A stretch of 64,000 nt of DNA from Flavobacteriales bacterium. Lineage in GTDB: Bacteria > Bacteroidota > Bacteroidia > Flavobacteriales > UBA1820. The stretch spans positions 1,944 through 65,943 of the forward strand of contig JAGAUI010000010.1 of assembly GCA_017620815.1 (NCBI GenBank), read 5' to 3'. Below the pieces are notes generated by a model. The model worked only from the letters and a program-made list of their open reading frames with translations. It made no database searches and was not told the DNA's origin. Shown piece after piece: positions 1 through 17,049 of the stretch. Within the stretch, counting starts at the first letter, position 1, and each line of letters starts with the position of its first letter. A program made the position numbers and the translations under genes.

Positions 1-100
1 GTTAATTAAAGAATTGGTTTGGTATGGACTCTTTTTGTTTTTTTGCAACCCCGCCATACTAGGGGCTTTACGTTTGGTTTTTCATCTTATATGAGTTTTA

Positions 101-307
101 TTACATTTCACTTTTATCTTCCACGGTAGAAGATTTGGTTTTACGGCGTGAGCGTCCACTACGACGCAAAGCATCAGATATTATCCACTGCAACTGCCCG
201 TTTACAGAACGGAATTCGTCGGCCGCCCATTTTTCTATGGCGTCCATCATATCTGCATCTACCCGCAAGACAAAGCTTTTGTTTTTTTCTTTTTTATCTT
301 CTGCCAT
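101..307 (-). CDS. Arc/MetJ-type ribbon-helix-helix DNA-binding protein
   Basis: 68-aa ORF. The N-terminal 'KSFVLRVDADMMDAIEKWAADEFRSVNGQLQWII' fits the strand-helix-helix layout of Arc-like repressors, and the tail is basic. It is last in a same-strand string with the SPFH gene. Confidence 0.55.
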   Translation of the reverse strand: MAEDKKEKNKSFVLRVDADMMDAIEKWAADEFRSVNGQLQWIISDALRRSGRSRRKTKSSTVEDKSEM

Positions 308-321
308 ATCTCACGCTGTTT

Positions 322-801
322 TTATTTCTTAATTATACGCAATAGTTTAACGAATGCTCGTCTTATATATTCAAGAGAACGCCCCAATATGATAAGTACA
401 AATCCCACCATCACAAAAACTGTCTCCCATACCTCATCGCTATCATTACCTCTTATCTTATTTATGATAGAGACTATCGCCACTATTCCTACCAATGTAT
501 AGGATATGGCTATCATAGCATTGGCTACACGAGCCGTAGGTGTTCCCTTTCTTACAAAACGTCTTTCACGTTTTTTACCTACTATGTCCTCACGGGTGAG
601 AGAAAAGGTAAAAAACCTCGAGATAAAACTTTTTACCTTTTCTCTGTTTACCCATAGAGACCACACCCACACTCCCAGCAACAGCACCACCGCTGCAATG
701 ACAGGACCCAGACGTCCCTCTTCTGCTCTAACGATAAGGCTATACGCCACCGTCGCCACTATGAGTATAGTCATCACAAAAGATCTCACATAACGTATCA
801 T
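322..801 (-). CDS. small polytopic membrane protein
   Basis: 159-aa ORF with about 4 hydrophobic segments (e.g. 'VMTILIVATVAYSLIV', 'VIAAVVLLLGVWVWSLWV'). No recognisable catalytic motif. Confidence 0.5.
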   Translation of the reverse strand: MIRYVRSFVMTILIVATVAYSLIVRAEEGRLGPVIAAVVLLLGVWVWSLWVNREKVKSFISRFFTFSLTREDIVGKKRERRFVRKGTPTARVANAMIAISYTLVGIVAIVSIINKIRGNDSDEVWETVFVMVGFVLIILGRSLEYIRRAFVKLLRIIKK

Positions 802-834
802 ATCTGTAGGGTGTTAAGTGTTGAAATTATTTTA

Positions 835-1773
835 TTACTGGTGCAGTGTTCCTGTATTTACAACCGGCTGAGCTGCTTCATCGGCACATAGGACTACTAG
901 AAGATTGGATACCATAGCGGCTTTACGTTCCTCGTCTAGCTCTACCACGCCATCTTCGCCCAGTTTATCCAGTGCCATCTTCACCATACCTACTGCACCT
1001 TCTACTATCTTGTGACGAGCCGAAAGTATAGCATCTGCCTGCTGACGACGCAACATCACAGCTGCAATCTCGGGTGCATAGGCTAGATGTGATATACGAG
1101 CCTCTATAACCTCTATACCTGCTATTTCCAGACTTGCTGAAATCTCGGCTTCCAGACGACGCTGTACCTCATCACCAGATGAACGCAATGTAACCTCATC
1201 GTGAGATTCTATATTGTCATAAGCATATTCGCCTGCTATACGGCGTAGTGCTGCATCGGCCTGTATTTTTACAAAGTTTTCATATGTCTTCATACGTCCG
1301 GCAGCATTGGTAACCACACCTTCTTTGGCATTGACATCGTTGTCTATATTAAACATTACCTTGTAGGTATCACGCACTTTCCATACCATAACCAGACCTA
1401 TAAGGATAGGGTTACCCGTCTTGTCGTTCACCTTGATAGGAGCAGCGTCTAGGTTACGAGCTTTAAGAGGTATCTTGGTAGCAGTATTAAAGGGGTTTAC
1501 CCAGTAGAATCCGTTACGGGTAAAAGTACCTTCATACTTACCAAAGAACATTATAACACGTGCTTCGTTGGGTTCTACCATTATAAATCCACCCAACATC
1601 ACGAGTGAAAGTAGAGAAAGCAACACTCCTAGTGTAATGCCTATCGCCATCATACCCGGCTCCATAAGGAACACAAAAGAGCATACAGCCCCTGCCACCA
1701 TCAGAAAAAATACTAGCAGCATCAGAAATCCCGATGCACACATACCCGAAAAAGTTACTTCATTGGTCTTCAT
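835..1773 (-). CDS. SPFH/band-7 (stomatin/flotillin-like) domain membrane protein
   Basis: 312 aa with N-terminal TM segments followed by SPFH-like sequence: 'VEPNEARVIMFFGKY...', 'PIKVNDKTGNPILIGLVMVWKV', and an Ala/Glu-rich helical region 'EIAAVMLRRQQADAILSAR'. Confidence 0.8.
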   Translation of the reverse strand: MKTNEVTFSGMCASGFLMLLVFFLMVAGAVCSFVFLMEPGMMAIGITLGVLLSLLSLVMLGGFIMVEPNEARVIMFFGKYEGTFTRNGFYWVNPFNTATKIPLKARNLDAAPIKVNDKTGNPILIGLVMVWKVRDTYKVMFNIDNDVNAKEGVVTNAAGRMKTYENFVKIQADAALRRIAGEYAYDNIESHDEVTLRSSGDEVQRRLEAEISASLEIAGIEVIEARISHLAYAPEIAAVMLRRQQADAILSARHKIVEGAVGMVKMALDKLGEDGVVELDEERKAAMVSNLLVVLCADEAAQPVVNTGTLHQ

Positions 1774-2203
1774 AATTTCAAAAAGTTTTAAAGTTAATTT
1801 ATTATTTTACTATTTTTTATATCACACATTAGTTCTACAATAAATACCGCTACAGCTATCCCCACAGCCAATATATCCTTCATATCTACTACTATCCCCA
1901 TCGCTAAACTCGTTTTATTTTGATATCATTTTGATATCACAAAAATAATTTAAAATTTCTGTTTTCCAAATGTTTTTTAAAAATTTTAAAAACTTTTTCT
2001 CACATTTTTCTTCTACATCTCTATACTTTTAACTACAACATACATTTTTGGCATAAAAAAGAACACTTTCATTCACTTTTTACAATAGAGTGCTTATTTT
2101 CCCTATCAAAAATTTGTTTTTTTTACTCCATAATTAAAATATATATCGGATATTTGTAGGCATATTTTAAAACACGAAGGAAATTTATAAAACAAATAAA
2201 ATT

Positions 2204-3277
2204 ATGCGTAAAATCAATTTCAGTGCAGGACCATCTGCATTACCATATGAAGTGGTAGAGAAAATGTCTGAGGCAATGATAGATTTTGAAGGCTCAGGCG
2301 TAGGTATAGGAGAGATTTCACACCGTAGCAAGGAGTTTCTCTCCATCATGGAAGAAGCCAAATCCCTAGTACGTGAACTACTGGAAGTACCAGAAGGCTA
2401 CTCCATACTATTTCTACACGGCGGAGCTACGCTACATTTCCTTATGACAGCCATGAACCTCATGAAAAAGGACGGTCGTGCTGGCTACCTCAATAGTGGC
2501 ACTTGGGCAGCAAAAGCGATGAAAGAAGCATCTATGGTAGGCGAAGTAGTAGAAGTAGCCTCTTCCAAAGCCGATGGATACACTTATATCCCCAAAGGCT
2601 ACACTATCCCTAGCGATATAGACTATTTCCATTGCACATCAAACAACACCATATATGGAACCCAGATAAAAGAGTTCCCAGAATGCCCTGTTACATATGT
2701 ATGTGATATGTCATCAGACATTTTTTCACGCCGCATAGATGTATCCAAATTTGACCTTATATATGCAGGAGCCCAGAAGAACGTAGGCCCAGCTGGTGTA
2801 ACACTAGTTATAGTTCGTGATGAAATCCTAGGCAAGACAGGTCGCGATATACCATATGTACTAGACTATCAGCAGCATATCAAGGCTGGTAGCATGTATA
2901 ACACACCATGCTGTATGGCTGTATATATGAGCGTACTTAACATGCGTCATCTTAAAGCTCGTGGAGGAGTAGCTGTAGCCGAAACATACAACCGTGAAAA
3001 AGCACAGATGCTTTATGATGAAATAGACCGCAACAGCATGTTCCGCGGAGTGGTTACAGTAAAAGAAGACCGCAGTGATATGAACGTTACATTTGTTCTT
3101 AATGAGCCAGAGAAATACAGCGAACGTTTTGCAGAATTATGTGAAGAAGCCGCTATCCGCGAAGTCAAAGGACACCGTAGCGTAGGCGGTTATCGTGTTT
3201 CGCTATACAACGCCATGACCAAAGAAAACGTTCAAGTTCTTATAGACGTAATGCAAAAACTAGAACAGGAGAAATAA
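2204..3277 (+). CDS. serC: 3-phosphoserine aminotransferase
   Basis: 357 aa. 'INFSAGPSALP', 'EISHRSKEF', 'FLHGGATLHF', 'IYAGAQKNVGPAGVT' (the PLP-Lys motif) and 'GHRSVGGYRVSLYNA' are classic SerC signatures. The gene is adjacent to serA. Confidence 0.95.
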   Translation: MRKINFSAGPSALPYEVVEKMSEAMIDFEGSGVGIGEISHRSKEFLSIMEEAKSLVRELLEVPEGYSILFLHGGATLHFLMTAMNLMKKDGRAGYLNSGTWAAKAMKEASMVGEVVEVASSKADGYTYIPKGYTIPSDIDYFHCTSNNTIYGTQIKEFPECPVTYVCDMSSDIFSRRIDVSKFDLIYAGAQKNVGPAGVTLVIVRDEILGKTGRDIPYVLDYQQHIKAGSMYNTPCCMAVYMSVLNMRHLKARGGVAVAETYNREKAQMLYDEIDRNSMFRGVVTVKEDRSDMNVTFVLNEPEKYSERFAELCEEAAIREVKGHRSVGGYRVSLYNAMTKENVQVLIDVMQKLEQEK

Positions 3278-3278
3278 A

Positions 3279-4232
3279 ATGAAAATACTTGCCAATGACG
3301 GAATGTCTGCTGCTGGTGTCAAGATACTGGAAGAAGCAGGAGCTGTGGTAATAACACAGAACGTTCCACAAGAAAACCTAGCCGAATACATAAACAGCGA
3401 AGGCGTAGAAGTCCTCACTGTACGTTCGGCTACAAAGGTACGCAAAGACCTTATAGACGCTTGCCCGGGACTTAAAGTGATAGGTCGTGCTGGTGTAGGT
3501 ATGGATAACATAGATGTAGCTTATGCTCGTAGCATAGGTCGTAAGGTGGTTAATACCCCTGCTGCATCGTCTATATCGGTTGCAGAATTGGTTATGTGCC
3601 ACATGCTTAACGTTGCTCGTATGGTAGAAGACTCAAACCGTCAAATGCCACTAGAGGGAGAAACAAGTTTTGCTGCTCTTAAAAAGAAATATGCCAAAGG
3701 TAAAGAACTACAAGGCAAGACACTGGGCGTGATAGGCTTTGGACGCATAGGTCAAGCACTTGCAAGAAAAGCCATAGGTATGGGAATGAAGGTAGTGTTC
3801 CACGACCCTTTCATCACAGCTAGCGTTTCGCTCAAGATGGAGTTCTATGACGGGCAGAGCGTAACGTTTGACATAGCACCTTCTACACTGGACGAAGTTC
3901 TTTCACAGGCAGATTTTATTTCTCTACACGTTCCTTCACAGGAAAAACCGCTTATAGATGCCGATGCTATCGCCAAGATGAAAGATGGCGTGGTGATAGT
4001 GAATGCTGCTCGTGGTGGTGTGGTAGATGAACTTGCACTATTGCAGGGTATAGATAGCGGCAAAGTATTCGGTGCGGGACTGGACGTATTTACAGGCGAA
4101 CCTACTCCACCTGTTGCTGTTCTTATGAACGAGAAAATCTCTCTTTCCCCACACATAGGTGCTTCTACTACCGATGCTCAGGACAAGATAGGTATAGAGA
4201 TCGCTTACAACATACTGGAAGCTCTCAAATAA
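3279..4232 (+). CDS. serA: D-3-phosphoglycerate dehydrogenase (short form, 2-hydroxyacid dehydrogenase family)
   Basis: 317 aa. It has the NAD Rossmann motif 'GVIGFGRIGQALARKA', plus 'NAARGGVVDE' and 'SPHIGASTTDAQ'. It starts 2 nt after serC. Confidence 0.85.
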   Translation: MKILANDGMSAAGVKILEEAGAVVITQNVPQENLAEYINSEGVEVLTVRSATKVRKDLIDACPGLKVIGRAGVGMDNIDVAYARSIGRKVVNTPAASSISVAELVMCHMLNVARMVEDSNRQMPLEGETSFAALKKKYAKGKELQGKTLGVIGFGRIGQALARKAIGMGMKVVFHDPFITASVSLKMEFYDGQSVTFDIAPSTLDEVLSQADFISLHVPSQEKPLIDADAIAKMKDGVVIVNAARGGVVDELALLQGIDSGKVFGAGLDVFTGEPTPPVAVLMNEKISLSPHIGASTTDAQDKIGIEIAYNILEALK

Positions 4233-4465
4233 GACTCACTCACATATTTATATGCACAAAGGGCAGCCCTGCGGGCAACCGTTATTTTATTTTAACTAAT
4301 TGATTATCAGTGTTAGTTTTTACGAAAATTGCGAAATCCTACATAGAAGACTATATGAAAGTCGTAATTGAGCAAAAAAACTACAAATGCAAAGGCACAT
4401 AAAACTTTTGAAAGTAAAGCACTGAAATCAAGTATCTTTCAATGATGCATTGTGAATAAACTAAG

Positions 4466-4510
4466 GTGGCGTATGAGCGAACTACACAGTTCACTACATA
4501 CGCCACTTTT
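4466..4510. terminator. two-tier GC hairpin, probable terminator of the minus-strand island operon (and/or plus-strand read-through)
   Basis: GTGGCGTATG (4466-4475) pairs with CATACGCCAC (4497-4506). An inner stem GAACT/AGTTC sits inside. TTTT follows on the plus strand. The hairpin lies 55 nt beyond the stop of the 4561..5829 gene. Confidence 0.55.
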
Positions 4511-4560
4511 GTCTTGAATTAGTTTGTATTAATGCGGACTATTTTGCAACCGTACTATGA

Positions 4561-5829
4561 TTAGCACTCATCGCTTGCTGCCACACATAGGGCTGCTCGG
4601 GTAAACTCCTCAGGGAAATGGGTTTTGAGGTAAGCTGTTGAGTAGGATAGATAGGCTAGTACCACAGCGTGTGCCTTCGGGTAGGCGTACAATCCTTGCT
4701 CGGTCATCGTTTGCCAACTCGCTTCGCCATATTTTGCTACCCAGCTAGGACGATACAACTCCAACTTTTCTATCCGTTTTCTACCCACGGCACGGCGCAA
4801 ATCGTCTGCCTCAGCCTCACTAAATCCGCAAGCCATCGCATCGCGCATAATCTCCTCTTGAAAACAATATCGTGAATCATTCTCGTTAAACATCTCAAAC
4901 GCCCCTGGTCTATTTATGGCGCAAAGACGCACCAAATCGTCAAACGAGGTCGGCGGATTAAAGTGCATCTCATTTGCCATCCCTCTGCGATTTAGGCAAT
5001 AGATTCCCGCCAAGTCGCCATAATGGAACGAGCGATAAGTCTCAGCATCATCGAGTGGTATTCGCAAATCGCAGCCATTAGACAAGTCAGTAAGCATCAA
5101 TCCGCACTTATCCCAAATCTCGTGGTTTGTCCGACTAATAAGCCCTGCGATGTTTGACGCTACAAGCGTTACGATATACCCCTCGCTCTCATCGCAAGCA
5201 ATCGCCTGCTCCAAATCTCGCAGATGAGATGGGCTCAAAATCTTACCAATAAGCAACTCCACCTCGATAAACTTTTGGCGATCCTCGGGCATAAATCGGG
5301 CAAACATAAGGTTGTGCTTTATGGGGTCTATATTCGTGATTCGCAAGCAATAAAAGACTAACGAGGCAGAATAGACTCCACGCCCTGCAATGTACGAGAT
5401 CCCCAATAGACTCATCTCCTTGGTCATCTTCGCCACGCCAAGCAGATACTCCACATAGCCACAACGCTCAAAAACCGCGACTTCGTGGTCGATGCGTTGC
5501 AGATATGCTTCTCGGTTTTCGGGTGTTAATAGACCTCTCCCTTCTGCATTGTCAATCACGATTTTTTGCAGATGCTTTGCCGGCGCTTTTGCAAATTTCT
5601 TGGGAAGTTTCAGGCGAGGAACGCTAAATACTCGCTCATTGTCGTTCTCTTTTGCGGTTAATACTCCCGACTCCTTGATTTGTCGGATAATGCGGCTTGC
5701 TCGGTTAAAACCGATGCAAAACCTCTCGCTAATGCCCGAGGCGGTCAATCTCTTTTGCACTCTGGCATACGCTACAACCTCATCAAACAGAGGGTCGCAG
5801 TTGCTTCTGTCAAAAGTTTTATTCTCCAT
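4561..5829 (-). CDS. FtsK-gamma winged-helix domain fused to a truncated, divergent DNA polymerase III alpha (DnaE)-like domain
   Basis: The N-terminus 'DPLFDEVVAYARVQKRLTASGISERFCIGFNRASRIIRQIKESGVL' matches the FtsK gamma domain (DPLF...SxxQRxxxIGYNRAARIIEQME). The rest has collinear PolIII-alpha blocks: 'GRGVYSASLVFYCLRITNIDPIKHNLMFARFMPEDR', 'IPLDDAETY', 'FDDLVRLCAINRPGAF', 'FQEEIMRDAMACGFSEAEADDLRRAVGRK' and 'YAYPKAHAVVLAYLSYSTAYLKTHFPEEF'. There is no PHP domain, most of the palm/fingers is missing, and there are no beta-binding or OB domains. Confidence 0.75.
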   Translation of the reverse strand: MENKTFDRSNCDPLFDEVVAYARVQKRLTASGISERFCIGFNRASRIIRQIKESGVLTAKENDNERVFSVPRLKLPKKFAKAPAKHLQKIVIDNAEGRGLLTPENREAYLQRIDHEVAVFERCGYVEYLLGVAKMTKEMSLLGISYIAGRGVYSASLVFYCLRITNIDPIKHNLMFARFMPEDRQKFIEVELLIGKILSPSHLRDLEQAIACDESEGYIVTLVASNIAGLISRTNHEIWDKCGLMLTDLSNGCDLRIPLDDAETYRSFHYGDLAGIYCLNRRGMANEMHFNPPTSFDDLVRLCAINRPGAFEMFNENDSRYCFQEEIMRDAMACGFSEAEADDLRRAVGRKRIEKLELYRPSWVAKYGEASWQTMTEQGLYAYPKAHAVVLAYLSYSTAYLKTHFPEEFTRAALCVAASDEC

Positions 5830-6538
5830 TGTCGTCCACTACATTTATGGTTTGCAATCTGGTTAATTTAAGGTTGTATGAGAAAAACATCTCGTCTTGT
5901 TGTGATAGAAGTGTTGCATCAGGCGTATCAAGCACCAATCTTGACTGCGATTTATCTGTAATACGGAAACAAATACGAGTCGGCATATTTGCTTTTAGGC
6001 GGCCTGAAAAGACCTTCCAACTAACTGGAATTGATGCTGCGATAAGATGAACCCCAACAAGATGACCTCGCTCGGCAATATAGACAAGCATATCCATAAA
6101 CTCTTTTTTGTACATTACAAGATAATCGAAGTCATCAATCAACACCATTTTTGGAGGGAAGGAGAGGTTTGGATTACTCATTAGTTTTTTAATATTGTCG
6201 CACAACATCTCCAACGCCTCACGAATCTCCTCCATCGTAGTCAGATATGTGTCAAAATAGGGGCGATTACCATCCATCCCTTTGGGGTCGATATAGATGA
6301 CAAAACACCCCTCAAACACCTTTTTGGGGGCATAATAAATAGACTTCGCAAAGACGTGTAGAAGGTTTGTTTTCCCTTGCCCCGTTGCCCCTCCGACCAA
6401 AATATTTCCCACCTTTGCCAAATCGACAATCAGGGGCTGGTTGTTGTCATCGTAGCCGAGAAAAATAGGCAATCCCATACACTTTGTCTGCTCCTTATGA
6501 GTGCGCATAATCGTTTTAAGTTCATTCTTGTTCTTCAT
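5819..6538 (-). CDS. soluble FtsK/SpoIIIE-family DNA translocase ATPase (motor domain only)
   Basis: 239 aa. 'LPIFLGYDDNNQPLIVDLAKVGNILVGGATGQGKTNLL' carries Walker A, 'IDPKGMD' follows, 'MVLIDDFDYLV' is Walker B, and 'GVHLIAASIPVSWKVFSGRLKANMPTRICFRITDKSQSRLVLD' is collinear with the FtsK alpha/beta core. There is no TM region. The stop overlaps the next ORF's start by 11 nt (ATGGAGAATAA). Confidence 0.85.
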   Translation of the reverse strand: MKNKNELKTIMRTHKEQTKCMGLPIFLGYDDNNQPLIVDLAKVGNILVGGATGQGKTNLLHVFAKSIYYAPKKVFEGCFVIYIDPKGMDGNRPYFDTYLTTMEEIREALEMLCDNIKKLMSNPNLSFPPKMVLIDDFDYLVMYKKEFMDMLVYIAERGHLVGVHLIAASIPVSWKVFSGRLKANMPTRICFRITDKSQSRLVLDTPDATLLSQQDEMFFSYNLKLTRLQTINVVDDNGE

Positions 6539-7031
6539 CTTCTTGCTCTATTATTTTGTCAATATAGTTATCATTGTATAGTCCTTTTTCTATCGCTTTT
6601 GCCATAAGTGCCGAGTAGATGCGCCAAAAGTTTGGACCGTGAGGAGTATCCTTCTTGCCACTGCGCCGATGCTCCGTAAAGTGGATATGGTGGGCGTATT
6701 CGTGTATAGCTATCTCCTCCAACGAGTGGACATTGCCCCAGCCACCGTGAATCGTTATACTCCGCTTTGCCGGCGCATAGTAACCCATACGGCTCTTGGG
6801 ACGTTGCTCCGTAACACGCAACTCGAAAGCAACCTGCGGGCGGTAGATTTTCATCAACATCCATTTCAGTTGCGTGGCAACCTTGGTTGTCGGGTCGGTT
6901 GAGCGATATGGCCTCTCGCAGACCTCCATAGGTTGTTCCTCAGTAGTCAGTTCTCGCCAAATGACCTTAATCTCTGCCCATAATGGAAAGAGTTTTCTAT
7001 GCCCATGCAATATGATATTCTGTAAATTCAT
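6522..7031 (-). CDS. SprT-like (zincin HExxH) metallopeptidase
   Basis: 169 aa. 'IAIHEYAHHIHF' (HExxH) is followed by 'PHGPNFWRIY', which resembles the SprT 'HELxHL...HGxxW/F' arrangement. It overlaps the FtsK-like ORF by 17 nt. Confidence 0.65.
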   Translation of the reverse strand: MNLQNIILHGHRKLFPLWAEIKVIWRELTTEEQPMEVCERPYRSTDPTTKVATQLKWMLMKIYRPQVAFELRVTEQRPKSRMGYYAPAKRSITIHGGWGNVHSLEEIAIHEYAHHIHFTEHRRSGKKDTPHGPNFWRIYSALMAKAIEKGLYNDNYIDKIIEQEDEEQE

Positions 7032-7069
7032 TGCATTATTTTATGAAAATTATGAAACACTATTTCCAA

Positions 7070-7636
7070 TCAAACATCTTCATACGCTTCATAAGTCCTC
7101 ATTAATCGTTTTAATTTTTCTATCTTCTTTTCACTTGATATATCATTATCAATAATTTTTTTTACTCTTCTTTTAAGGTCAAAACCTATCTCTTGTAGAT
7201 TGTCCCAGTGAACATACACATCTATATTTGTAAGATACTGAGAATAGTAGTCTATTGCGTTATTGAGATATTCAGGATCTGTAAGGCGTTTAACCTTCTC
7301 CACACGAGGAATATCCCATATTGCAAGTTGACTATCGGTTGTCGTAACCTCTCGCTCAACAATACTATAAGCCAATTTTTCATAATGGCCACCCAATATC
7401 TTTGCAGCCTTAAAACTTCCGGACTGTGAAGCATTGTTTAGCCAGCATATTGCGCTAAACATATCCTGTTTCACCCCTTTGCCCTCATAGTAACAGATAC
7501 CTAATCGGTATTTTCCTTCGTGGTCAGCTTTATCTTCTGCTACTAACGACCAGCAGCGAATAGCATTCGTATAATCTCCGTTTGCAGCGTATAGGTTTCC
7601 TGCCTCACATATAGCCTTGATATTGTCCAAATCCAT
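7070..7636 (-). CDS. Sel1-like (TPR-family) repeat protein
   Basis: 188 aa. 'AGNLYAANGDYTNAIRCW' and 'YRLGICYYEGKGVKQDMFSAICWLNNASQSGSFKA' are typical Sel1 repeats. The gene is visibly more AT-rich than its neighbours. Confidence 0.7.
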   Translation of the reverse strand: MDLDNIKAICEAGNLYAANGDYTNAIRCWSLVAEDKADHEGKYRLGICYYEGKGVKQDMFSAICWLNNASQSGSFKAAKILGGHYEKLAYSIVEREVTTTDSQLAIWDIPRVEKVKRLTDPEYLNNAIDYYSQYLTNIDVYVHWDNLQEIGFDLKRRVKKIIDNDISSEKKIEKLKRLMRTYEAYEDV

Positions 7637-7655
7637 AACCCAAAGTTTTATAGTG

Positions 7656-7663
7656 CAAAGCTA
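7656..7663 (-). promoter_or_regulatory. candidate Bacteroidetes -7 promoter box (TAGCTTTG) upstream of the Sel1 gene
   Basis: The minus strand reads TAGCTTTG, matching TAnnTTTG, about 20 nt upstream of the ATG at 7636. It sits inside a 155-nt intergenic gap. Confidence 0.3.
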
Positions 7664-7791
7664 CCTCCTCACACAGCCAAATATTTTCAGAGTAAATTTT
7701 AGTTCTTGTTTTATTTAGCTCCTTTCGGGGGACATGTAGTAGAGTACTCATGAGTGCCTATAAGAGTTCGTATTTTGTCATAAATAAGCTG

Positions 7792-8853
7792 TTAGAAAAT
7801 AGAGATATACTCCTTGATATCGCGCGGGCAATTAAGTAGCCTCACACTCTCCATCATAAGCCCCGAGCGTCGATTATCCTCTACCTCCCAAATTGGTGTA
7901 TGCGAGGCAAAGGCGGTAATACGGTTTATTAAATCCCACATATTTATACCGCTTCGGGCTTGGTTTATAGGAAAATGTTGTGTGGCATATCCTGCAGCCT
8001 GATACAGGCCGAGCAAATGCTCATAAGGAGCAATCTCATTGGCTATATCCTGCTCCACTCCATACCGCGACAATAGTCTATCTACCATTCTGACCTCGCC
8101 CATAGATGCCTCGGTACGCATTGCAAGTAAGGCATTGGTGCGCAGTTTGTCAAATCCAGCCATAATAAATTCGGTGCGTGGCAGAGCCAACATCTTGGCT
8201 ACATTGGTATCGTTTAATTGATAGGAGTGTGCAATTTTACGCTCCGTACGCACCATATGTCCATTTGAGCAAATCATACGCATATAGTAGTTGCCAGCCT
8301 CAACTTCGCCCAAGTTCCAGCGAAACCAAACACCATTGGTCATAAACTCCTCATCTTCTGCAATTGCGTTATAGTTTGGCGTGTTGGGCATAAGACTTAC
8401 CGTAACACCACCCTGTAACGAGCCCGATGTGTAGAAAGTGTCTGGCATATAACCATTATCATTCATAAACATCTCCAAGAAATCAAAGAAGCTCTCGGCT
8501 GGTATTGCCTCTTGTTTTAGGTGTGTTGCTCCTACTATTTTTCGCTCTTTTGGGTCGGCAATCAAGGCGAGTTTTCCCGCTTTTTCTACACTATTTGATA
8601 AAGCAAGATAGTTTCGTAAATCACGTATACCATTTGCTCCGAAAGTGTCGGTAACAGACTTCGATTGTCGGGGCGATACGCCGATAAAGGCATCTATCTG
8701 CTCGGAGATATTAGGCTCGACTTCGAGTTCCAAGCCGTGCATTAGGTAGGTATTTTCGCCAGAAGAGATTAGTTCTTGTGGTTCTACGATACGGTAAGGT
8801 AGTTGTGAGGCGATGAAATTATCACGCCACGCGGTGTAAGATTTACTATCCAT
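7792..8853 (-). CDS. DUF932-like (phage/plasmid-associated) protein
   Basis: 353 aa. 'YYMRMICSNGHMV' resembles the conserved 'FRFVCQNGLV' core that I recall from DUF932 proteins such as E. coli prophage YfjQ. The rest is not recognisable by eye. It overlaps the upstream ATPase gene by 8 nt. Confidence 0.45.
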   Translation of the reverse strand: MDSKSYTAWRDNFIASQLPYRIVEPQELISSGENTYLMHGLELEVEPNISEQIDAFIGVSPRQSKSVTDTFGANGIRDLRNYLALSNSVEKAGKLALIADPKERKIVGATHLKQEAIPAESFFDFLEMFMNDNGYMPDTFYTSGSLQGGVTVSLMPNTPNYNAIAEDEEFMTNGVWFRWNLGEVEAGNYYMRMICSNGHMVRTERKIAHSYQLNDTNVAKMLALPRTEFIMAGFDKLRTNALLAMRTEASMGEVRMVDRLLSRYGVEQDIANEIAPYEHLLGLYQAAGYATQHFPINQARSGINMWDLINRITAFASHTPIWEVEDNRRSGLMMESVRLLNCPRDIKEYISIF

Positions 8854-9700
8854 TTTTCTCTCTATTTAGATTGTTAAACAATTCATCAAATCTGTCTGCA
8901 AAGTCGTGCAGTTGATTGCGGACATTGCGTTGCATACGGCGTATGCTTTGGTCTTGCTCGTAGCGTTCCTCGTCAAAATCGACATCACCCGTAGTGGAGA
9001 GGTTGTAATATAGTTTCACACCTACATCTCCTCGGCGGTGCTTCGAGAAGGTGATATAACGGTCGGAATAGATGTTTTTCGGGTTGTCCAGACGCAACTC
9101 CATCATCGCCGTAATCATATGTTTCAGGCGATTAGAGCCGACAAATGCTCCCGACTTGGTTACCTGCTGAATAGTTAGAAAAGTGGTATTGACACCTCGG
9201 TCATTCTGCGCCTTGTTCTGCTGCTTGATAAGCGACAGGAGCATACTCTCGGCTCGTTTGTTGGTTACATTCTCCTCCTCTTTGACGACACCCTGCAACT
9301 CGTGGAACGAGTCGATAGCAACAATATCCCAACCATTATCAAGCGTATCGGCAACCGTTTGCCACGAATGGCTACACTCATCAAAGCCTCCTTCGATAAA
9401 TAGAATATTAAGGTCGCCAAACTTCGGAAAACGCTCCACATAGATTGCAAGGTCGATTTCATTCATCTCCGCACTGATAAAGAGTATGCGTGCCGAAGGC
9501 TGGGCCTTGCGTATATTGGCAAGCATATCGAGTATGATTGTTGTCTTGCCTACGCCCGGGTCGCCAATAATCATATAATTAACGCCCTTGGGTAGGCCTT
9601 GATAACTACACAGCAGATTATCGAGTATTGTTCGCGTGCGGAAGTTGATAAATAGGTCCTTATCAAACCGCACATCCCGCATTTTTACTATTCCATTCAT
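8846..9700 (-). CDS. RadA/Sms-like RecA-fold ATPase (stand-alone core, no zinc finger or Lon-like domain)
   Basis: 284 aa. It has Walker A 'IIGDPGVGKTTIILDM', 'ILFISAEM', and a Walker B-like 'IVAIDSFHEL'. 'TFLTIQQVTKSGAFVGSNRLKHMITAMMELRLD' and 'ITFSKHRRGDVG' are collinear with RadA 'GHVTKEGxIAGPRVLEHMVDTVLYFEG...KNRFG'. Confidence 0.7.
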   Translation of the reverse strand: MNGIVKMRDVRFDKDLFINFRTRTILDNLLCSYQGLPKGVNYMIIGDPGVGKTTIILDMLANIRKAQPSARILFISAEMNEIDLAIYVERFPKFGDLNILFIEGGFDECSHSWQTVADTLDNGWDIVAIDSFHELQGVVKEEENVTNKRAESMLLSLIKQQNKAQNDRGVNTTFLTIQQVTKSGAFVGSNRLKHMITAMMELRLDNPKNIYSDRYITFSKHRRGDVGVKLYYNLSTTGDVDFDEERYEQDQSIRRMQRNVRNQLHDFADRFDELFNNLNREKNG

Positions 9701-9719
9701 CGCATCCTTGATTTTGCGA

Positions 9720-9727
9720 CAAAAGTA
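9720..9727 (-). promoter_or_regulatory. candidate -7 promoter box (TACTTTTG) for the six-gene module
   Basis: The minus strand reads TACTTTTG (TAnnTTTG). It lies immediately after the terminator hairpin and about 20 nt upstream of the ATG at 9700. Confidence 0.35.
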
Positions 9728-9730
9728 AAA

Positions 9731-9761
9731 CCCCTCTCTGCCACATCAGGACAGAGAGGGG
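9731..9761 (-). terminator. intrinsic terminator after the PLD nuclease gene
   Basis: CCCCTCTCTG (9731-9740) pairs with CAGAGAGGGG (9752-9761). On the minus-strand RNA the stem is followed by UUUUACUUUU. Confidence 0.65.
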
Positions 9762-9783
9762 GTGATTTGAAAATTTTGCTCTA

Positions 9784-10317
9784 TTATTTCGTCTTTTTTA
9801 CCTGCATGGTTATTGGCATTCCACAATAGTCTTTGCGCTTGCAATTTTTACAATGTTCGCCAGACCAGACCGAGTTGAAATGGTCGGCGGCGGCATCAAC
9901 CAACGCGAGGTCGTCGGTCATAATTCCCGCCTCAAAGTTGCGCTTGCCATCGGACTTCATTCCAATACCTGCACCCGTAAGGTTTGCCGAGCCGATATAT
10001 GCCGCCTCACAATCGAAAATCATCATTTTGAAATGGACTCTCGGACAGAGTTTACGTTGCAAATTCTTTATGAGAGAAGGATACTTATCAAAATCTTCAC
10101 GGAAGTTCGGCCCCGGCTCTTTGGCGTGCAACAATCTTACCTCCACACCTCGCCTGACGAGCAAATCAAGCACCGCAAGGAACGGCTCACGACCTGCTCC
10201 GACCTTCACATAGAGGTCTTTGATATCGGCCGTACCAATCACCAGCGAATGCCTTACACTCGCCACCCGCGCCAGCACCTCATTGTAGTGCGCTATGTCA
10301 GAGATGTAGTTTATCAT
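9784..10317 (-). CDS. single-HKD phospholipase D-family (Nuc-like) nuclease
   Basis: 'HFKMMIFDCEAAYIGSANLT' matches HxK(x)4D(x)6GSxN exactly. The C-terminus is Cys-rich ('HCKNCKRKDYC'). I set the start at the internal ATG at 10317 ('MINYISD'), 4 nt after the GmrSD stop, rather than at the track's 10377. Confidence 0.85.
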   Translation of the reverse strand: MINYISDIAHYNEVLARVASVRHSLVIGTADIKDLYVKVGAGREPFLAVLDLLVRRGVEVRLLHAKEPGPNFREDFDKYPSLIKNLQRKLCPRVHFKMMIFDCEAAYIGSANLTGAGIGMKSDGKRNFEAGIMTDDLALVDAAADHFNSVWSGEHCKNCKRKDYCGMPITMQVKKTK

Positions 10318-10321
10318 TTTT

Positions 10322-12367
10322 CTAATTATAAATAAGATGATAGAAACATTTATAGATATTAACCAATCGTCGTGCAATAGCCATTGCGTGATTTATGACC
10401 ATCGATTCGTCATCTTTATTAAACCTTTCAGTCAATGTTTTCCAATATTCCAAATCTCCTTCTTCTATAAAATAATTTTTATGAGTAGAGACATCTTTTA
10501 ACCTATCACTGGGGGACAGTTTATTGCTTTCACTACGATTATCAGATAGTGACATAGCACGTAAATTGCCAATAGTATTATTCCATTTGCGAGTTAATTC
10601 ATGGATCTTTCTTTGTCCATACACCCATTCACTTGGATAGATATGATCCCAATCCCATGGAGTATTGGTATCTTCCAGTCGTTCTAGTTCATTAAATTCT
10701 GGAAATTCATCGCGAATATAAGAACTTTGAGCTATTAGTATGAGTAAACGATTATATTGTACAGAATTGATAAAGCCCCACCACGAATCTGAAATTTTAG
10801 AGTTGAACTGTTCTTTGTTGATTTCTGAAGCCCCAATACGACATTCCCAGTATTTCCATATCTCTGGGTCATTTTCTGCAGATAACGAATAATCATTATC
10901 CTTATCTTCTATCTTTTTTTCAAAAAATTTCATCAGCAACTCTGGGTCAATGAGAGGGTATTGTATAAACCGCCCATCATTAACTGGCTGACTCCAGAAA
11001 TCATCACTAGTAACACTATTCCATTTTTCATTGACATAAGTCGATACATCACCAAACCATGCAGTACGATATATCTGTGAACAAATAGCTGTCTTTAAGG
11101 AAGAATCTATAGATAAATCTTTATCTATATACTCATCAAGATAGCGAAGTAATAATAAAAATATTTCTGTTTTGGTAGCAATTACCTGTCTTACCACGAC
11201 ATTGGGAATTTCTCCATTCATTTGGAGGATTTCCACAGCTATATCATAAAGTTTTTTTATCCTTCCATCTTCACTACCTATGTAATTTTTTAATAATTGT
11301 TCTTTAAAATCAGGATTATTTATAAAATTTTGGAATTGTTTTACTCCTATATTCTTAATATAATTACCGTTATTAACCTTTGCATATACCAATTTAGATG
11401 CCAAAACAATAGTTTTAGCTGGAGAAATGATGTTTTGTGAAAGTGATTCTACCAAAGATTTAGCTTCTGGACAAGTAGATTTATAAATAGAATAAATGAG
11501 TTCTTCCCCCTCCAAGCGTGTCCCTTCAGAATTGATTCTTACAAATAAAGTGGGATCATTACCTTCATTATTTTTATCATCTAAGGACAAGACTCCTTTT
11601 TTTACTATAATTCCAGGCACCATTAGCTTTATAGCATTGTTCTTGATAGCATTGTAGATATCCTTATAGTCATTATTATTTAATTTTTCCCTATAATCTT
11701 CAGCTTTAATATATTTAGTATTGAGCCCTAAGGGAAAATGTGTTGCAACTTTTTTACAAATGATTGCCTTCCAGTCTTCATAAGATATGTCTTGATTCCC
11801 TTCAAAAGGAGCTAGGGCAAATGATAGTGGTATGGGTAAATATGAGTCATATGGGTAACGCTCTTCTGGTTTAAGGTCTATGTATTTTTTCTTTTGCTTT
11901 CCATCTTCCTCATTTTCAGAAATAAGATAATCTAGAGCCTTTACTCTATCACTCACACTCAAAATAGCATTATTATTAAAGAGCTGATACCCCCAAGGAT
12001 GAGATTGGGTTACAACCCTTATGACAAATTTCTGACCATAACTATACTTTTCAGGTTTTAAATCAATCCATACAACAGGTAATTGGTGGGCATTACCTAT
12101 GGATTTACGTTCTTCTTCCCATGGATTATATAAAGCTAGTGCTATGGACGTTGAACGTTGCTGACCATCAAACAACCACATAGTTTGATTTTCTGTTTCA
12201 GATAGCATAAAAGCTCCTATTGGATAGCCACTGAGTATAGAATCCCATACGCGTTCTATTTGTACTGGTTTCCATACAAAACCTCGTTGCATCGCAGGTA
12301 GTAATATATTTGAATTTTCACTTACCAACCATTTGCTTATTTCAAATAAATTATATACTTCTACCAT
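10322..12367 (-). CDS. GmrSD-family type IV restriction-like enzyme (DUF262 ParB-like NTPase + DUF1524 His-Me nuclease)
   Basis: 681 aa. The N-terminus 'LPAMQRGFVWKPVQIERVWDSILSGYPIGAFML...FDGQQRSTSI' carries the DGQQR motif. The C-terminus 'WDWDHIYPSEW...IGNLRAMSLSDNRSESNK' is HNH/His-Me-like. The gene is very AT-rich compared with its flanks. Confidence 0.9.
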   Translation of the reverse strand: MVEVYNLFEISKWLVSENSNILLPAMQRGFVWKPVQIERVWDSILSGYPIGAFMLSETENQTMWLFDGQQRSTSIALALYNPWEEERKSIGNAHQLPVVWIDLKPEKYSYGQKFVIRVVTQSHPWGYQLFNNNAILSVSDRVKALDYLISENEEDGKQKKKYIDLKPEERYPYDSYLPIPLSFALAPFEGNQDISYEDWKAIICKKVATHFPLGLNTKYIKAEDYREKLNNNDYKDIYNAIKNNAIKLMVPGIIVKKGVLSLDDKNNEGNDPTLFVRINSEGTRLEGEELIYSIYKSTCPEAKSLVESLSQNIISPAKTIVLASKLVYAKVNNGNYIKNIGVKQFQNFINNPDFKEQLLKNYIGSEDGRIKKLYDIAVEILQMNGEIPNVVVRQVIATKTEIFLLLLRYLDEYIDKDLSIDSSLKTAICSQIYRTAWFGDVSTYVNEKWNSVTSDDFWSQPVNDGRFIQYPLIDPELLMKFFEKKIEDKDNDYSLSAENDPEIWKYWECRIGASEINKEQFNSKISDSWWGFINSVQYNRLLILIAQSSYIRDEFPEFNELERLEDTNTPWDWDHIYPSEWVYGQRKIHELTRKWNNTIGNLRAMSLSDNRSESNKLSPSDRLKDVSTHKNYFIEEGDLEYWKTLTERFNKDDESMVINHAMAIARRLVNIYKCFYHLIYN

Positions 12368-12393
12368 TATAATGAATATTTTATTTCTTTATC

Positions 12394-12675
12394 TTACCAC
12401 TCGTTCATCTCCTCCAAATCTTCATCGTCAAACATCGCTTTGAGTTCGTCATCAGCATCAAACACATCATATTCTTCTTTAACCTGTGATAGCAGGCGAA
12501 GTGCCTTGTGACGAGTTATACTATCGGGGATTTCCATAAGACCTTGCTCGATATCCATCAATTTCTCATCAAATTCATTGTAGTCAAAATCATCTTCTTG
12601 AGTTACATCTGTAGCAAGCATTGCCTCCAATTCTTTTATATATGGACGTGCCATATCTTCTGCATATTTATACAT
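12394..12675 (-). CDS. hyper-acidic small protein (30 Asp+Glu of 93 residues)
   Basis: By hand count there are 30 D/E against 9 K/R. Acidic runs include 'QEDDFDYNEFDE' and 'FDADDELKAMFDDEDLEEMNEW'. It lies between the WYL regulator and GmrSD, with 15- and 26-nt gaps. Confidence 0.6.
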   Translation of the reverse strand: MYKYAEDMARPYIKELEAMLATDVTQEDDFDYNEFDEKLMDIEQGLMEIPDSITRHKALRLLSQVKEEYDVFDADDELKAMFDDEDLEEMNEW

Positions 12676-12690
12676 AATATTTTATTTTAA

Positions 12691-13626
12691 TTACTTTTTA
12701 TACACCTTAAACTTATACCCTGAATCCATACCTGCCGAGGCATTGTTGTTTGCGGTCTTCTCGGCCTTAGTGCGGAGCATATCTTTGAGTAGCACGGGGG
12801 CTAACACGCCTACTGAGTCGCCCATTGAGAGTATTTTCTGCTGAAAATCAAACGACGGACACAAGCGGTACTCGAAAATAGAATACTCCTCATTGCGCTC
12901 TACCTCCTTTTGCGTGTGGTGCAGTGGTAATGTACGCAAATAGTTACTCTGCCACGAATCGACCTTCAATGCCACAGGGCCAACATCAAAATCTTCATCG
13001 CCGATGATAATGCCGTAGTAGTCTTCAAAAAACTTCGCTGCATCGAACTTTTTGGGCAGTTTGAATGTACACTCTGTCTGCTCCAAAGCTTTGATGCGGT
13101 CGAGGGCATAGATGCGCAGTTTGTCGCTCATTCCGAGCATATACCATCTTTGCCTAAAAAGTTTAACGCAATATGGCTCCACCTCAAATGTCGAAGCCTC
13201 GCTTCTACCAAAACTATGGTATGTCATATGCAATGTCCTATTCTCACGCATAGCCTTGACGATAGACATAAGAAAGTTCTGTCCAGATGGAATATCTTCC
13301 AGCAGGATACGTTTTTTAAGTGCAGCACTTTCATTAAGAACACTATTTACCGAAAAAGTTTGAATTAACCATTTACGCATCTTCATATCCTCTATATCAT
13401 CATTGGCTACTACATAGCCATTGCGTTTACGGTCATACTCTATGTCTATGTCAAATAGTTCCTCTACCGCATCGGTATAACGATGGAATGTACGCTCTTC
13501 CAATACTTCTCCTGTATCAAAGTGTAGTTCAAACCTACGTTGAATATCTTTTAACGATATTGGCCCGTAATTCAATATAGTAGTTACAAACCAAACATAA
13601 CGGTTAATAAGCCCTGCGGTACTCAT
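12691..13626 (-). CDS. WYL-domain transcriptional regulator (wHTH-WYL-WCX architecture, BrxR/CapW-like)
   Basis: 311 aa. The N-terminus 'GPISLKDIQRRFELHF' is wHTH-like. The central 'VKLFRQRWYMLGMSDKLRIYALDRIKALE' is the WYL signature (WY[LM]xG...LDRI). Confidence 0.8.
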   Translation of the reverse strand: MSTAGLINRYVWFVTTILNYGPISLKDIQRRFELHFDTGEVLEERTFHRYTDAVEELFDIDIEYDRKRNGYVVANDDIEDMKMRKWLIQTFSVNSVLNESAALKKRILLEDIPSGQNFLMSIVKAMRENRTLHMTYHSFGRSEASTFEVEPYCVKLFRQRWYMLGMSDKLRIYALDRIKALEQTECTFKLPKKFDAAKFFEDYYGIIIGDEDFDVGPVALKVDSWQSNYLRTLPLHHTQKEVERNEEYSIFEYRLCPSFDFQQKILSMGDSVGVLAPVLLKDMLRTKAEKTANNNASAGMDSGYKFKVYKK

Positions 13627-13657
13627 AACGGGTTGAAATTTTAGGTAAAGTTAAAAA

Positions 13658-13927: not shown

Positions 13928-13967
13928 AGGTATGATTGTATACTGACAAAATGAGTCAGTGTTATGA

Positions 13968-14453: not shown

Positions 14454-14467
14454 AATGATTAACTTAA

Positions 14468-15739: not shown

Positions 15740-15773
15740 CACCCTCAAAATACCAAATCTCGTCAGTGTAAAA

Positions 15774-16811
15774 TTATCTTCTTACAAACTCATACAACTC
15801 TCGCAGGTAGTCGTCGATGTTTTCGTCTATATAGAAACAATCTTTTTGTGGTTGCCAGCGGTAATGCACTTTGTCGGATAATGGCTCTGTCCACTGCTCC
15901 ACGCCTGGCATATCCGCGGATAAATCCTCCAAATAATCGTGAAAATATAGGCGTGTGCGATTGGCTATCTCTTGCCCGAGTCGGATTTTAGGCGCACGAT
16001 TTTGCTCGGCCTCGTGCAAAAACTTATCCCTAAACTCATCAAACGAGCAACGCTCCCACCATTTCCCACCACTGCCATCTTGCTCCTCCCAATGCTGATG
16101 CGAGACCTTGACCTCCACGCAAAAGTCGTTCATACGCAGAATGTCGGAAATGGAATAGGGCTTGTGGCAACTCAAATCGTGAATGGCATGACAGATACAG
16201 AGGTGGCTCAATTTCTCGGCGGCAGGCTGTACGGACTCATACCAAGTCGTGTCGTCATTGAGGTCATCTTTTATCCCCAACTCTTCGCATGTCATTTCGG
16301 GGCGATAGTCGGCAGGCGAGCGGAGGTACCAGCAAGACTCTACCTCCTCCAATTTCAGATGCTTGCAAGTGTATAGCCAGTCAATAATGCAAAACATCTC
16401 GTAGAATTCCGAGCCGTAATAGTCGTCATTCGCCATTGGCAAAACAGAACTGTGTCCATTCGGCGAAAACCTAAGCGAGCCCTCGACCTCCACATCGTCA
16501 TCAAATTCGGGGTCATAGGTTGTGGTCGCCATCTTGCGATAGACAGCCTCTGTACGAGCATACATCTTATGCGTAAGTTCAAATAGCCTATTATTTACTT
16601 GCTCCATACGCACCACCTCCTCAGGTGTAGCGACAAACATCTTATCGAGCAGATGTTTACGCTTCCAAATCAATTTTTCGACCTGCTCACATTTGCGCTG
16701 CGAACGAGTCCACTCGATATTAAACTCCACATTTCGTCCCGTGATGGCAAGAATCTTCTCTTCGATTTTCTGCACCTGCTCCCGCAGATGGGTATATTCA
16801 TTGTTTTTCAT
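15774..16811 (-). CDS. hypothetical protein, N-terminal coiled-coil-like region and Cys/His-rich centre
   Basis: I trimmed the ORF to the ATG at 16811 ('MKNNEYTHL'), because a TAnnTTTG box lies inside the longer track ORF. The centre reads 'HLCICHAIHDLSCHKPY'. No family was recognised. Confidence 0.55.
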   Translation of the reverse strand: MKNNEYTHLREQVQKIEEKILAITGRNVEFNIEWTRSQRKCEQVEKLIWKRKHLLDKMFVATPEEVVRMEQVNNRLFELTHKMYARTEAVYRKMATTTYDPEFDDDVEVEGSLRFSPNGHSSVLPMANDDYYGSEFYEMFCIIDWLYTCKHLKLEEVESCWYLRSPADYRPEMTCEELGIKDDLNDDTTWYESVQPAAEKLSHLCICHAIHDLSCHKPYSISDILRMNDFCVEVKVSHQHWEEQDGSGGKWWERCSFDEFRDKFLHEAEQNRAPKIRLGQEIANRTRLYFHDYLEDLSADMPGVEQWTEPLSDKVHYRWQPQKDCFYIDENIDDYLRELYEFVRR

Positions 16812-16834
16812 AATAAATGGGATGTAATTTTCGG

Positions 16835-16842
16835 CAAAACTA
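16835..16842 (-). promoter_or_regulatory. candidate -7 promoter box (TAGTTTTG) at the upstream edge of the island
   Basis: The minus strand reads GGTGTAGTTTTGCC, with the box 24 nt upstream of the ATG at 16811. Confidence 0.35.
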
Positions 16843-17049
16843 CACCACCAAACTGCCATAATATGACAGATTAGAATTTCAAAGACAAAAAGAGCAGAAT
16901 GTTGAATTTTATTTAAGCCGTACCAAGTAACACCAATTGACCTTAATTTAGACTACAAAGGAGGTTACACGAGAAGAGTAAGATTGGAGTTTTAGCGGTT
17001 TTTGTGAGCTATATCTTTTTACAGCACAACTGCCTAACATGTTGAATAT

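Follow-up and report, generated by a model that had tools for sequence, protein, structure and literature searches.

C-family replicases have been held to be invariant at a triad of catalytic aspartates and always to carry a PHP domain. In true C-family polymerases, D401, D403, and D555 are conserved without exception (PMC3919608), and the N-terminal PHP domain is universal among C-family polymerases (PMC12926913). One survey of the family dropped fragments without an intact active site, and another dropped truncated sequences before phylogenetic analysis; an inactive, miniaturized C-family homologue is not described in these surveys (PMC3919608, PMC12926913). We analyzed a 64,000-nt stretch of DNA (hereafter, the window) from a Flavobacteriales bacterium (GenBank assembly GCA_017620815.1, contig JAGAUI010000010.1, forward-strand positions 1,944 to 65,943), which contains an open reading frame (ORF) of 422 amino acids (aa) that joins an FtsK-gamma-type winged helix to a shortened relative of DnaE, the alpha subunit of DNA polymerase III (PolIII). 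We refer to the two parts as gamma and mini-DnaE. To judge from its sequence, mini-DnaE is most likely a non-catalytic relic of a C-family polymerase, and together with gamma it appears to form the invariant end of a mobile island in gut Bacteroidales.

Three Pfam matches, all above the gathering cut-offs, were identified in the 422-aa protein: FtsK_gamma (PF09397) at residues 11-66 (43.1 bits; cut-off 30.6), DNA_pol3_alpha (PF07733) at residues 86-186 (70.1 bits; profile positions 2-100 of 260 only), and DNA_pol3_finger (PF17657) at residues 256-313 (57.5 bits). We used phmmer to align the protein against PDB sequences; this analysis matched Taq PolIII-alpha (2hpi, E 8e-30) in three collinear stretches (query residues 106-188 to Taq 380-462, 256-325 to 647-716, and 321-420 to 741-850), the PolIII-alpha of M. 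tuberculosis and E. coli likewise in three collinear stretches, and E. coli FtsK gamma (2j5p) at E 3.5e-9. A preliminary description of the locus had reported that the ORF opens with an FtsK gamma winged helix followed by five collinear blocks of replicase alpha sequence; the Pfam and 2j5p matches bear out the former, and all five blocks are present in the translation (IAGRGVYSASLVFYCLRITNIDPIKHNLMFARF; IPLDD; FDDLVRLCAINRPGAF; FQEEIM..EADDLRRAVGRK; GLYAYPKAHAVVLAYLSYSTAYLKTHFP). The similarity to PolIII-alpha is genuine. In an hhalign comparison, the profile built from 15 family members matched that of 20 full-length DnaE proteins at probability 100 and E 3.3e-62; mini-DnaE columns 5-359 correspond to positions 276-774 of the 1139-column DnaE consensus, ~30% of residues are identical across the 350 profile columns aligned, and all conserved finger motifs are kept. 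The best-scoring NCBIfam families for mini-DnaE are DnaE1 models, and the AlphaFold model of the 422-aa protein (pLDDT 59.7, pTM 0.61) matches only C-family polymerases in a Foldseek search of PDB.

Based on the hhalign comparison, mini-DnaE lacks the PHP domain: the alignment begins at DnaE column 276, the protein has no PF02811 match, and no PHP remnant was found upstream of mini-DnaE. In place of ~140-150 DnaE columns, ~60 residues lie between the PDxD motif and IPLDD; the lost columns cover the second palm half and the thumb, and they include the KxDFLGL strand, on which the third catalytic Asp resides. The protein ends after the LKxHYP helix, at about DnaE consensus column 774, without the distal fingers and without the helix-hairpin-helix/clamp-binding, OB, and tau-binding/C-terminal regions. 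The absence of PHP, clamp, and OB regions had been recognized in the preliminary description, whereas its statement that most of the fingers were lost between the blocks has to be amended: the proximal fingers are largely retained, and the segments missing between the blocks are the thumb and the second palm half. AlphaFold confidence is low in residues 1-75 and 184-256, with pLDDT <50 over the latter. As judged from these alignments, the ~355 residues that follow gamma are a C-family polymerase core with part of the palm only.

The first palm half contains the sequence KFIEVELLIG (residues 186-195), in which E189 and E191 lie exactly on the two Asp of the PDxD motif (E. coli D401 and D403); the phmmer alignment to structures and hhalign agree on this register. 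The preliminary description had placed the E-V-E within one residue of DxD without settling the register; the alignments show no offset. Its observation that the canonical Asp pair is absent holds, with Glu at both positions. The D405 position is Leu, and the S364 position is Val, such that the GRGS loop reads GRGV. The strand with D555 falls in an hhalign gap, and hhalign aligned no third carboxylate in mini-DnaE, in line with the earlier remark that a third catalytic Asp has no clear equivalent. The register is thus fixed by profile-profile alignment; because of its low confidence in residues 1-75 and 184-256, the AlphaFold model gives no reliable view of an acidic cluster or of a gamma/core interface. 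Residues that line the substrate pocket are kept: R150, R178, R345/R346, K385, and H387 match the nucleotide-pocket residues of DnaE (R362, R390, R709/R710, K758, and H760), of which H760 is the steric gate (PMC8485763), and an acidic loop (CDESEG) precedes the sole remaining strand. With respect to the motifs of Pol-beta-type enzymes (hG[GS], [DE]x[DE], and a third carboxylate), the loop reads GRGV rather than GRGS, ExE is present, no third carboxylate aligns, and the model of residues 184-256 is of low confidence.

Within the main subfamily, ExE is near-invariant (115 of the 117 sequences matched by the motif pattern); across the family, these positions read EVE, EAE, EME, VVE, ELV, or xFEF. 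ELV occurs in P0121 (61% identity), and xFEF, with one Glu only, occurs in the P0124 subfamily (34-42% identity), in which the steric-gate His is replaced by Tyr and length and architecture are conserved. Because no acidic position is kept across the whole family, catalysis is unlikely, and mini-DnaE is most likely a non-catalytic relic. The inactivated polymerase scaffold that the preliminary description had offered as one of two possibilities is therefore the best-fitting reading, given that each acidic position is lost somewhere in the family.

The first database search returned 271 homologue clusters, and each of the 120 listed corresponds to an ORF of 359-366 aa that lacks the gamma domain. 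Members of a divergent subfamily are 369-376 aa long, and the range across the family is 357-376 aa. In their source annotations, the homologues are hypothetical proteins or “DNA polymerase III alpha subunit.” The proteins share 74-91% identity and come from metagenome-assembled genomes (MAGs) whose labels are Alistipes, Tidjanibacter, Rikenellaceae, Ca. Aphodosoma, and Paludibacteraceae. An intact mini-DnaE ORF of 358-362 aa is present in all 17 related loci tested, and the median dN/dS is 0.15 at dS ~0.6 (153 pairs); mini-DnaE is under purifying selection. Homology of other loci to the window stops 4-6 nt past the stop codon or runs into conserved non-coding DNA, and comparison of the flanks of related loci with the window revealed no remnants of the missing DnaE domains. 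A pseudogene, including the decayed second dnaE copy that the preliminary description had named as an outcome that would refute it, was rejected based on the intact ORFs among the matches listed, the dN/dS value, and the absence of flanking remnants. The mini-DnaE family was not found in phage, plasmid, and viral-contig (IMG/VR) collections; an origin from a phage or plasmid was also rejected, as these collections contain only full-length DnaE-type polymerases with ≤33% identity. Apart from this family, we observed DnaE-like proteins that lack PHP or the thumb and keep DxD-type motifs (P0267, 390 aa; P0215, 598 aa; P0126, 606 aa); P0126 also has a second, degenerate copy of the first palm half.

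None of the 17 related loci carries the fusion; instead, a gamma ORF of 63-71 aa, or its remnant, and the mini-DnaE ORF lie apart. In loci L011 and L012, a 239-aa FtsK ATPase is followed by a 69-aa gamma ORF and a 360-aa mini-DnaE ORF, and each gene overlaps the next, with 20 nt shared by the separate gamma and mini-DnaE ORFs. Relative to these two loci (GAGTAC-AAAA-TTAAT), the window reads GAGTAT-TTAGC; through this 4-nt deletion, located beside an A-run, the stop codon of gamma is lost and the two reading frames become one. By this comparison, the fused ORF is a lineage-specific in-frame merger of two normally separate, overlapping genes, and not the family feature that it had first been taken for. 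At 90% identity, the fused protein falls in a cluster with three distinct 422-aa sequences that are 99% identical, and an identical fused gene lies beside serA/serC in an independent metagenome assembly (L033). An assembly or sequencing error was rejected on these grounds. Because three variants and an independent assembly carry the fused allele, the fusion is a recent event in one shallow lineage, in which it is tolerated.

The gamma part aligns over its full length (residues 10-71) with E. coli FtsK gamma (2j5p, E 1.4e-10), and it also matches the E. coli gamma domain that was crystallized fused to XerD (5dcf). An intact, free-standing gamma ORF of 63-71 aa is present in 13 related loci; counted from the first ATG, that of L013 has 86 aa. 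Across 14 loci, the recognition helix, IGFNRA(N/S)RIIRQI, hardly varies, and the dN/dS of gamma is 0.25. We used tblastn to compare a panel of 27 loci; this analysis placed gamma directly upstream of mini-DnaE in most main-subfamily loci, whether the gene preceding gamma encodes an FtsK ATPase, a SprT-like protein, a Sel1 protein, a 100-aa protein, or a uracil-DNA glycosylase (UDG)-like protein. Because the position of gamma is constant under varied preceding genes, the conserved unit is gamma plus mini-DnaE rather than the FtsK motor plus gamma. The FtsK/SpoIIIE-type ATPase gene upstream of the fused ORF (Pfam PF01580, E 3e-11; PHROG 1358, E 3e-29; PADLOC mad8, E 2e-22) ends in another frame than gamma, and gamma is not its C-terminal module. 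Gamma is tied more tightly to mini-DnaE than to the FtsK motor, which many islands lack.

A second free-standing gamma ORF (83-84 aa) often occurs with a strongly conserved protein of 92-100 aa; the two are adjacent in L004 (4916-5560) and L011 (902-1519). A weak ParC/GyrA match of the 100-aa protein had raised the idea that gamma is paired with fragments of host DNA enzymes; this idea was dropped when the match was not reproduced by a family profile searched against PDB. A faint helix-hairpin-helix-like resemblance of the 100-aa protein to DNA glycosylases remains. In L001, an integrative element (6487-9999) with genes for two tyrosine integrases, a relaxase, MobC, HTH_17, and AbiE abuts a truncated gamma ORF directly upstream of mini-DnaE; the island is itself a target of other mobile elements.

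Across the tblastn panel, gamma and mini-DnaE lie at one fixed end of an island of about 5-13 kb in gut Bacteroidales, and a protein of 345-361 aa, an 89-aa membrane protein, and a WYL/WCX regulator form the other (Table 1). Homology of the window to the L008 island begins at position 16976. The left-end protein is 75-91% identical between loci (window, L004, L008, L014, L020, and L023) and has no match in Pfam, NCBIfam, PHROG, or PDB; in L020, a paralogue with 37% identity lies tail-to-tail directly after mini-DnaE. Between the ends, the cargo is a mosaic of GmrSD, PLD nuclease, RadA-like, ABC, and FtsK-like ATPases, SprT-like protease, Sel1, and UDG-like genes, and the second gamma ORF. In the window, the WYL/WCX regulator and recognized defense genes form one same-strand array (Pfam, PADLOC), and PADLOC identified GmrSD/HEC-05, a DrmC-like PLD nuclease, and the mad8-like ATPase; no PADLOC model matched mini-DnaE. 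The minimal island, L008, keeps the gamma/mini-DnaE pair with only a UDG-like gene as cargo. Cargo DNA at 10239-12649 (GmrSD) and 6530-9761 (RadA-like ATPase, 353-aa protein, Sel1, and SprT) is 93-95% identical to that of L016, whereas the chromosomal backbone and mini-DnaE are ~86% identical and the gamma protein is only 70% identical; the cargo was exchanged more recently than the frame. On the evidence of the panel, gamma and mini-DnaE together close the island as a conserved module and belong to its invariant frame, not to its exchangeable cargo.

The core genes beside the island vary: serA in the window and L016, and catalase, pyrophosphatase, or rpsA in other MAGs. Different flanking core genes in different MAGs, together with protein identities of 74-91%, point to horizontal spread of the island. 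No integrase or transposase was recognized in the islands with both ends in the locus (window, L004, and L008). The L011 copy has McrBC, a restriction-modification system, and Fic as neighbors, and the L028 copy has a restriction-type nuclease and WYL. Cargo proteins of 267-272 aa lie beside WYL in L008 (9012-9830) and L004 (3347-4150), and a 75-aa ORF is present in L004 (1878-2105); both match the uracil-DNA glycosylase superfamily below threshold (E 1.6e-4 and 5e-5), and they may be glycosylase-type defense genes. The rest of the window, outside the island, is ordinary Bacteroidales chromosome.

Table 1. Features of the island and of the fused gene in the window (window coordinates).
Feature	Position	Strand	Basis or remark
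Conserved non-coding segment downstream of the fused gene	4285..4560	minus	276 nt
Fused ORF, FtsK-gamma winged helix plus mini-DnaE, 422 aa, ATG start	4561..5829	minus	Stop codon 4561-4563
Proximal fingers, residues 256-422 (IPLDD, RPGA, FQEE, LRRAVGRK, YPKAH, LKTHFP)	4564..5064	minus	
Short remodelled linker, residues 196-255, in place of ~140-150 DnaE columns	5065..5244	minus	hhalign gaps, AlphaFold pLDDT
First palm half of mini-DnaE, residues 67-195, including GRGV and E189-V-E191	5245..5631	minus	
E191 codon	5257-5259	minus	
E189 codon	5263-5265	minus	
Fusion junction, 4 nt missing relative to L011/L012	5627..5628	minus	DNA alignment
FtsK-gamma-type winged helix, residues 1-66	5632..5829	minus	Pfam PF09397, 2j5p alignment
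Ancestral mini-DnaE ATG	5637-5639	minus	Sequence
FtsK/SpoIIIE-type P-loop ATPase, 239 aa, RecA-like core only	5819..6538	minus	Overlaps gamma start by 11 nt
SprT-like HExxH protein	6522-7031	minus	Between the 7651-7699 repeat and the FtsK/gamma/mini-DnaE genes
Sel1-repeat protein	7070-7636	minus	Between the 7651-7699 repeat and the FtsK/gamma/mini-DnaE genes
Variable cargo: 353-aa protein, RadA/KaiC-like ATPase, PLD nuclease, GmrSD type IV restriction enzyme, 93-aa protein	7792..12675	minus	
WYL/WCX regulator	12691-13626	minus	Island head; Pfam WYL and WCX
Predicted membrane protein, 89 aa	13658-13927	minus	Island head
Left-end gene, 345-361 aa, with upstream region	15774..16976	minus	Gene at 15774-16859

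The non-coding segment downstream of the fused gene is 96-98% identical to that of L016, whereas the flanking coding DNA is ~86% identical. An 18-bp hairpin (4460-4512) in the segment shows one compensatory pair, and the RNA fold z-score of the segment is -4.4. The segment is found next to the gene at further chromosomal sites (L008, L017, and L022), and it is cut at differing points in L021, L026, L027, and L015. Near 4385, it has a Bacteroidetes-type promoter-like sequence (TTTG..TAGTTTTT), and it has two ATGTAG-N6-RTGTAG motifs; enrichment of RTGTAG-N6-RTGTAG in the window is not significant (4 matches compared with 1.5 expected, a count reached in 6 of 100 shuffles). The segment may combine a terminator with a small RNA, or it may be the functional end of the island. 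A search of window positions 1-20000 with Rfam returned nothing relevant, and no tRNA genes were found.

A perfect 19-nt direct repeat (CATGTAGTCTTCTATGTAG) is present at both ends of the minimal island L008 (6530-6548 and 11287-11305), with direct rather than inverted half-sites. The window has a right copy with one mismatch (~4339-4356) and a degenerate left copy (~16950). No flanking repeat of at least 11 nt was found in seven other islands; the island ends have no general flanking direct or inverted repeats, and L008 alone has the 19-nt repeat. When metagenome contigs were scanned with SerA for an empty site, only relatives with ≤71% identity were identified. Within the window island, a 49-nt repeat with a TAnnTTTG-type Bacteroidetes promoter element occurs three times (7651-7699, 15727-15775, and 16830-16878; 69-71% identity), preceding the Sel1 operon, a 316-aa gene, and the 361-aa gene. 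Because this promoter-like repeat fronts three gene sets, it suggests that the island has three transcription units.

We favor the reading that gamma and mini-DnaE form a non-catalytic complex that serves the island's own DNA handling or control, and we assign this reading as a whole a probability of roughly 0.55. The overlap of the two genes in relatives and the tolerance of a natural fusion suggest that the two would act as one complex. Gamma would dock this complex on a short double-stranded DNA motif, mini-DnaE would hold DNA or a nucleotide through its retained pocket residues without catalysis, and the pair might help to recognize island DNA when it is replicated, transferred, or maintained. 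Several observations weigh against this proposal. ExE is almost invariant in the main subfamily, where it may retain residual metal binding. AlphaFold confidence is low in gamma and the remodelled palm, so any geometry modelled for E189, E191, and nearby acidic residues is tentative. Mini-DnaE is mildly acidic (pI about 5.6-5.9), and its DNA binding is suggested only by the retained residues; the pI values do not separate the hypotheses. The divergent subfamilies (L028, L031, and L194) have no adjacent gamma, so the pairing of gamma with mini-DnaE is not universal. Finally, no integrase, terminal repeats, or empty site have been established, and the term “mobile island” is drawn from the distribution across sites and genera.

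The surroundings of the pair are consistent with a role in anti-phage defense, in which it would be a sensor or adaptor, the dead core a decoy or a binder of primer-template or 3' ends on foreign DNA, gamma the part that discriminates sequence, and the neighboring genes the effectors. The WYL/WCX regulator that heads the island is of the BrxR/CapW type (PMC9122601, PMC11662680); among the island's cargo are GmrSD, a PLD/DrmC-like nuclease, a mad8-like FtsK ATPase, an ABC ATPase, and UDG-like proteins; and the L011 and L028 copies have the restriction genes and other neighbors noted above. However, the pair is invariant, whereas the defense genes are shuffled, PADLOC has no model for mini-DnaE, and L008 keeps the pair with a UDG-like gene only. 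Because the pair is part of the invariant frame and the defense genes are exchangeable, we favor handling or control of island DNA over an anti-phage effector, and we regard the defense role as a doubtful possibility. The preliminary description had also raised an unusual minimal nucleotidyltransferase. In such an enzyme, E189, E191, and another acidic residue would bind metal, and the protein would make a nucleotide product or prime DNA. The exact placement and near-invariance of ExE in the main subfamily, the match to the nucleotide pocket, including the steric gate (PMC8485763), and the CDESEG loop all suit such an enzyme; however, the third-Asp strand is deleted, the GS motif is GV, P0121 has ELV, and the P0124 subfamily has one Glu and a steric-gate Tyr, yet its length and architecture are conserved. 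True C-family enzymes never vary at these Asp (PMC3919608), and we consider catalysis of this kind improbable.

The lack of a recognized integrase or transposase in the window, L004, and L008 islands also raises the possibility that the pair is a mobility module in which free gamma activates the host XerD, allowing the island to integrate or excise without an integrase of its own. Each island carries one or two free-standing gamma ORFs, gamma matches over its full length the E. coli domain crystallized with XerD, and L008 has a perfect repeat at both ends. Nonetheless, the islands lie at varied chromosomal sites rather than at one dif-like site, seven other islands lack flanking repeats of at least 11 nt, the L008 half-sites are direct rather than inverted, and mini-DnaE would be left without a role; we find this module very improbable. 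A broader proposal defines a new class of integrase-less mobile island, marked by the 345-aa protein, WYL, and the gamma/mini-DnaE pair, whose spread would be driven by a polymerase-derived protein with a non-canonical activity. This activity might be DNA-end binding, priming at the conserved structured end segment, or two-Glu nucleotidyl transfer, with gamma as the site reader; we judge this proposal improbable. That the gene is a decaying fragment of a second dnaE, or the fusion an artifact, is hardly credible: most DnaE domains are lacking and the fusion hinges on a 4-nt indel beside an A-run, but the length is conserved, dN/dS is low, the flanks hold no PHP or C-terminal remnants, and the fused allele recurs in three variants and an independent assembly.

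Compared with known mobile and defense-related systems, the island shares individual traits with several. WYL (BrxR/CapW)-regulated defense islands likewise have WYL/WCX at the head of a same-strand nuclease/ATPase array (PMC9122601, PMC11662680); the window island differs in its fixed two-ended frame and in the occurrence of the whole unit at different sites and in different genera. Pipolins are likewise mobile islands with exchangeable defense genes and a hallmark gene of polymerase origin; however, they encode an active primer-independent PolB and are reported to be commonly integrative and repeat-flanked (PMC11551731), whereas the hallmark here is a C-family relic, apparently inactive, and no recombinase or consistent repeats were found. 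Elements that exploit Xer (IMEX) have a dif-like site and dif-like end repeats, a pattern from which this island departs, as its neighbors vary and a repeat is present in L008 only. The mini-DnaE family also marks an undescribed type of defense-cargo island in gut Bacteroidales, with fixed ends and no recognizable recombinase.

Compared with FtsK gamma, the KOPS reader and XerD activator, which binds an oriented 8-bp motif, the gamma part is a full winged-helix match with a conserved recognition helix (IGFNRASRIIRQIK, against IGYNRAARIIEQME in E. coli). However, one Glu of the E. coli helix is Arg in the window. Furthermore, FtsK gamma is the C-terminus of a translocase, whereas here it is the N-terminus of mini-DnaE, and relatives encode it as a free 63-71-aa protein from a gene that overlaps mini-DnaE. 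The accidental fusion links a putative DNA-reading winged helix to a polymerase relic and could offer a ready-made single-chain construct for structural and binding work. DnaE1-type PolIII alpha (2hnh, 2hpi, and 5lew) resembles mini-DnaE in the first palm half and proximal fingers; however, DnaE1 is ~1160 aa long, whereas mini-DnaE has 360 aa and lies on a mobile island, with D401 and D403 replaced by Glu, D405 by Leu, and the D555 strand absent. The PolIII core can thus be reduced to ~360 residues, with the triad lost, and still be under purifying selection. Inactive polymerase scaffolds (ImuB, the inactive Y-family proteins of DnaE2 mutasomes, and inactivated PolB and PolX) likewise keep a fold under selection after loss of the catalytic carboxylates (PMC3919608, PMC12926913). 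Whereas scaffolds of the ImuB type derive from the Y, B, or X families and are roughly full length, mini-DnaE is a miniaturized C-family protein, and neither a clamp-binding motif nor genes for mutasome partners were observed here. In the library searched, we found no published description of an apparently inactive, miniaturized C-family core with a gamma reader on a mobile island; inactive polymerase homologues such as ImuB are already known, and the miniaturized C-family case appears to be new.

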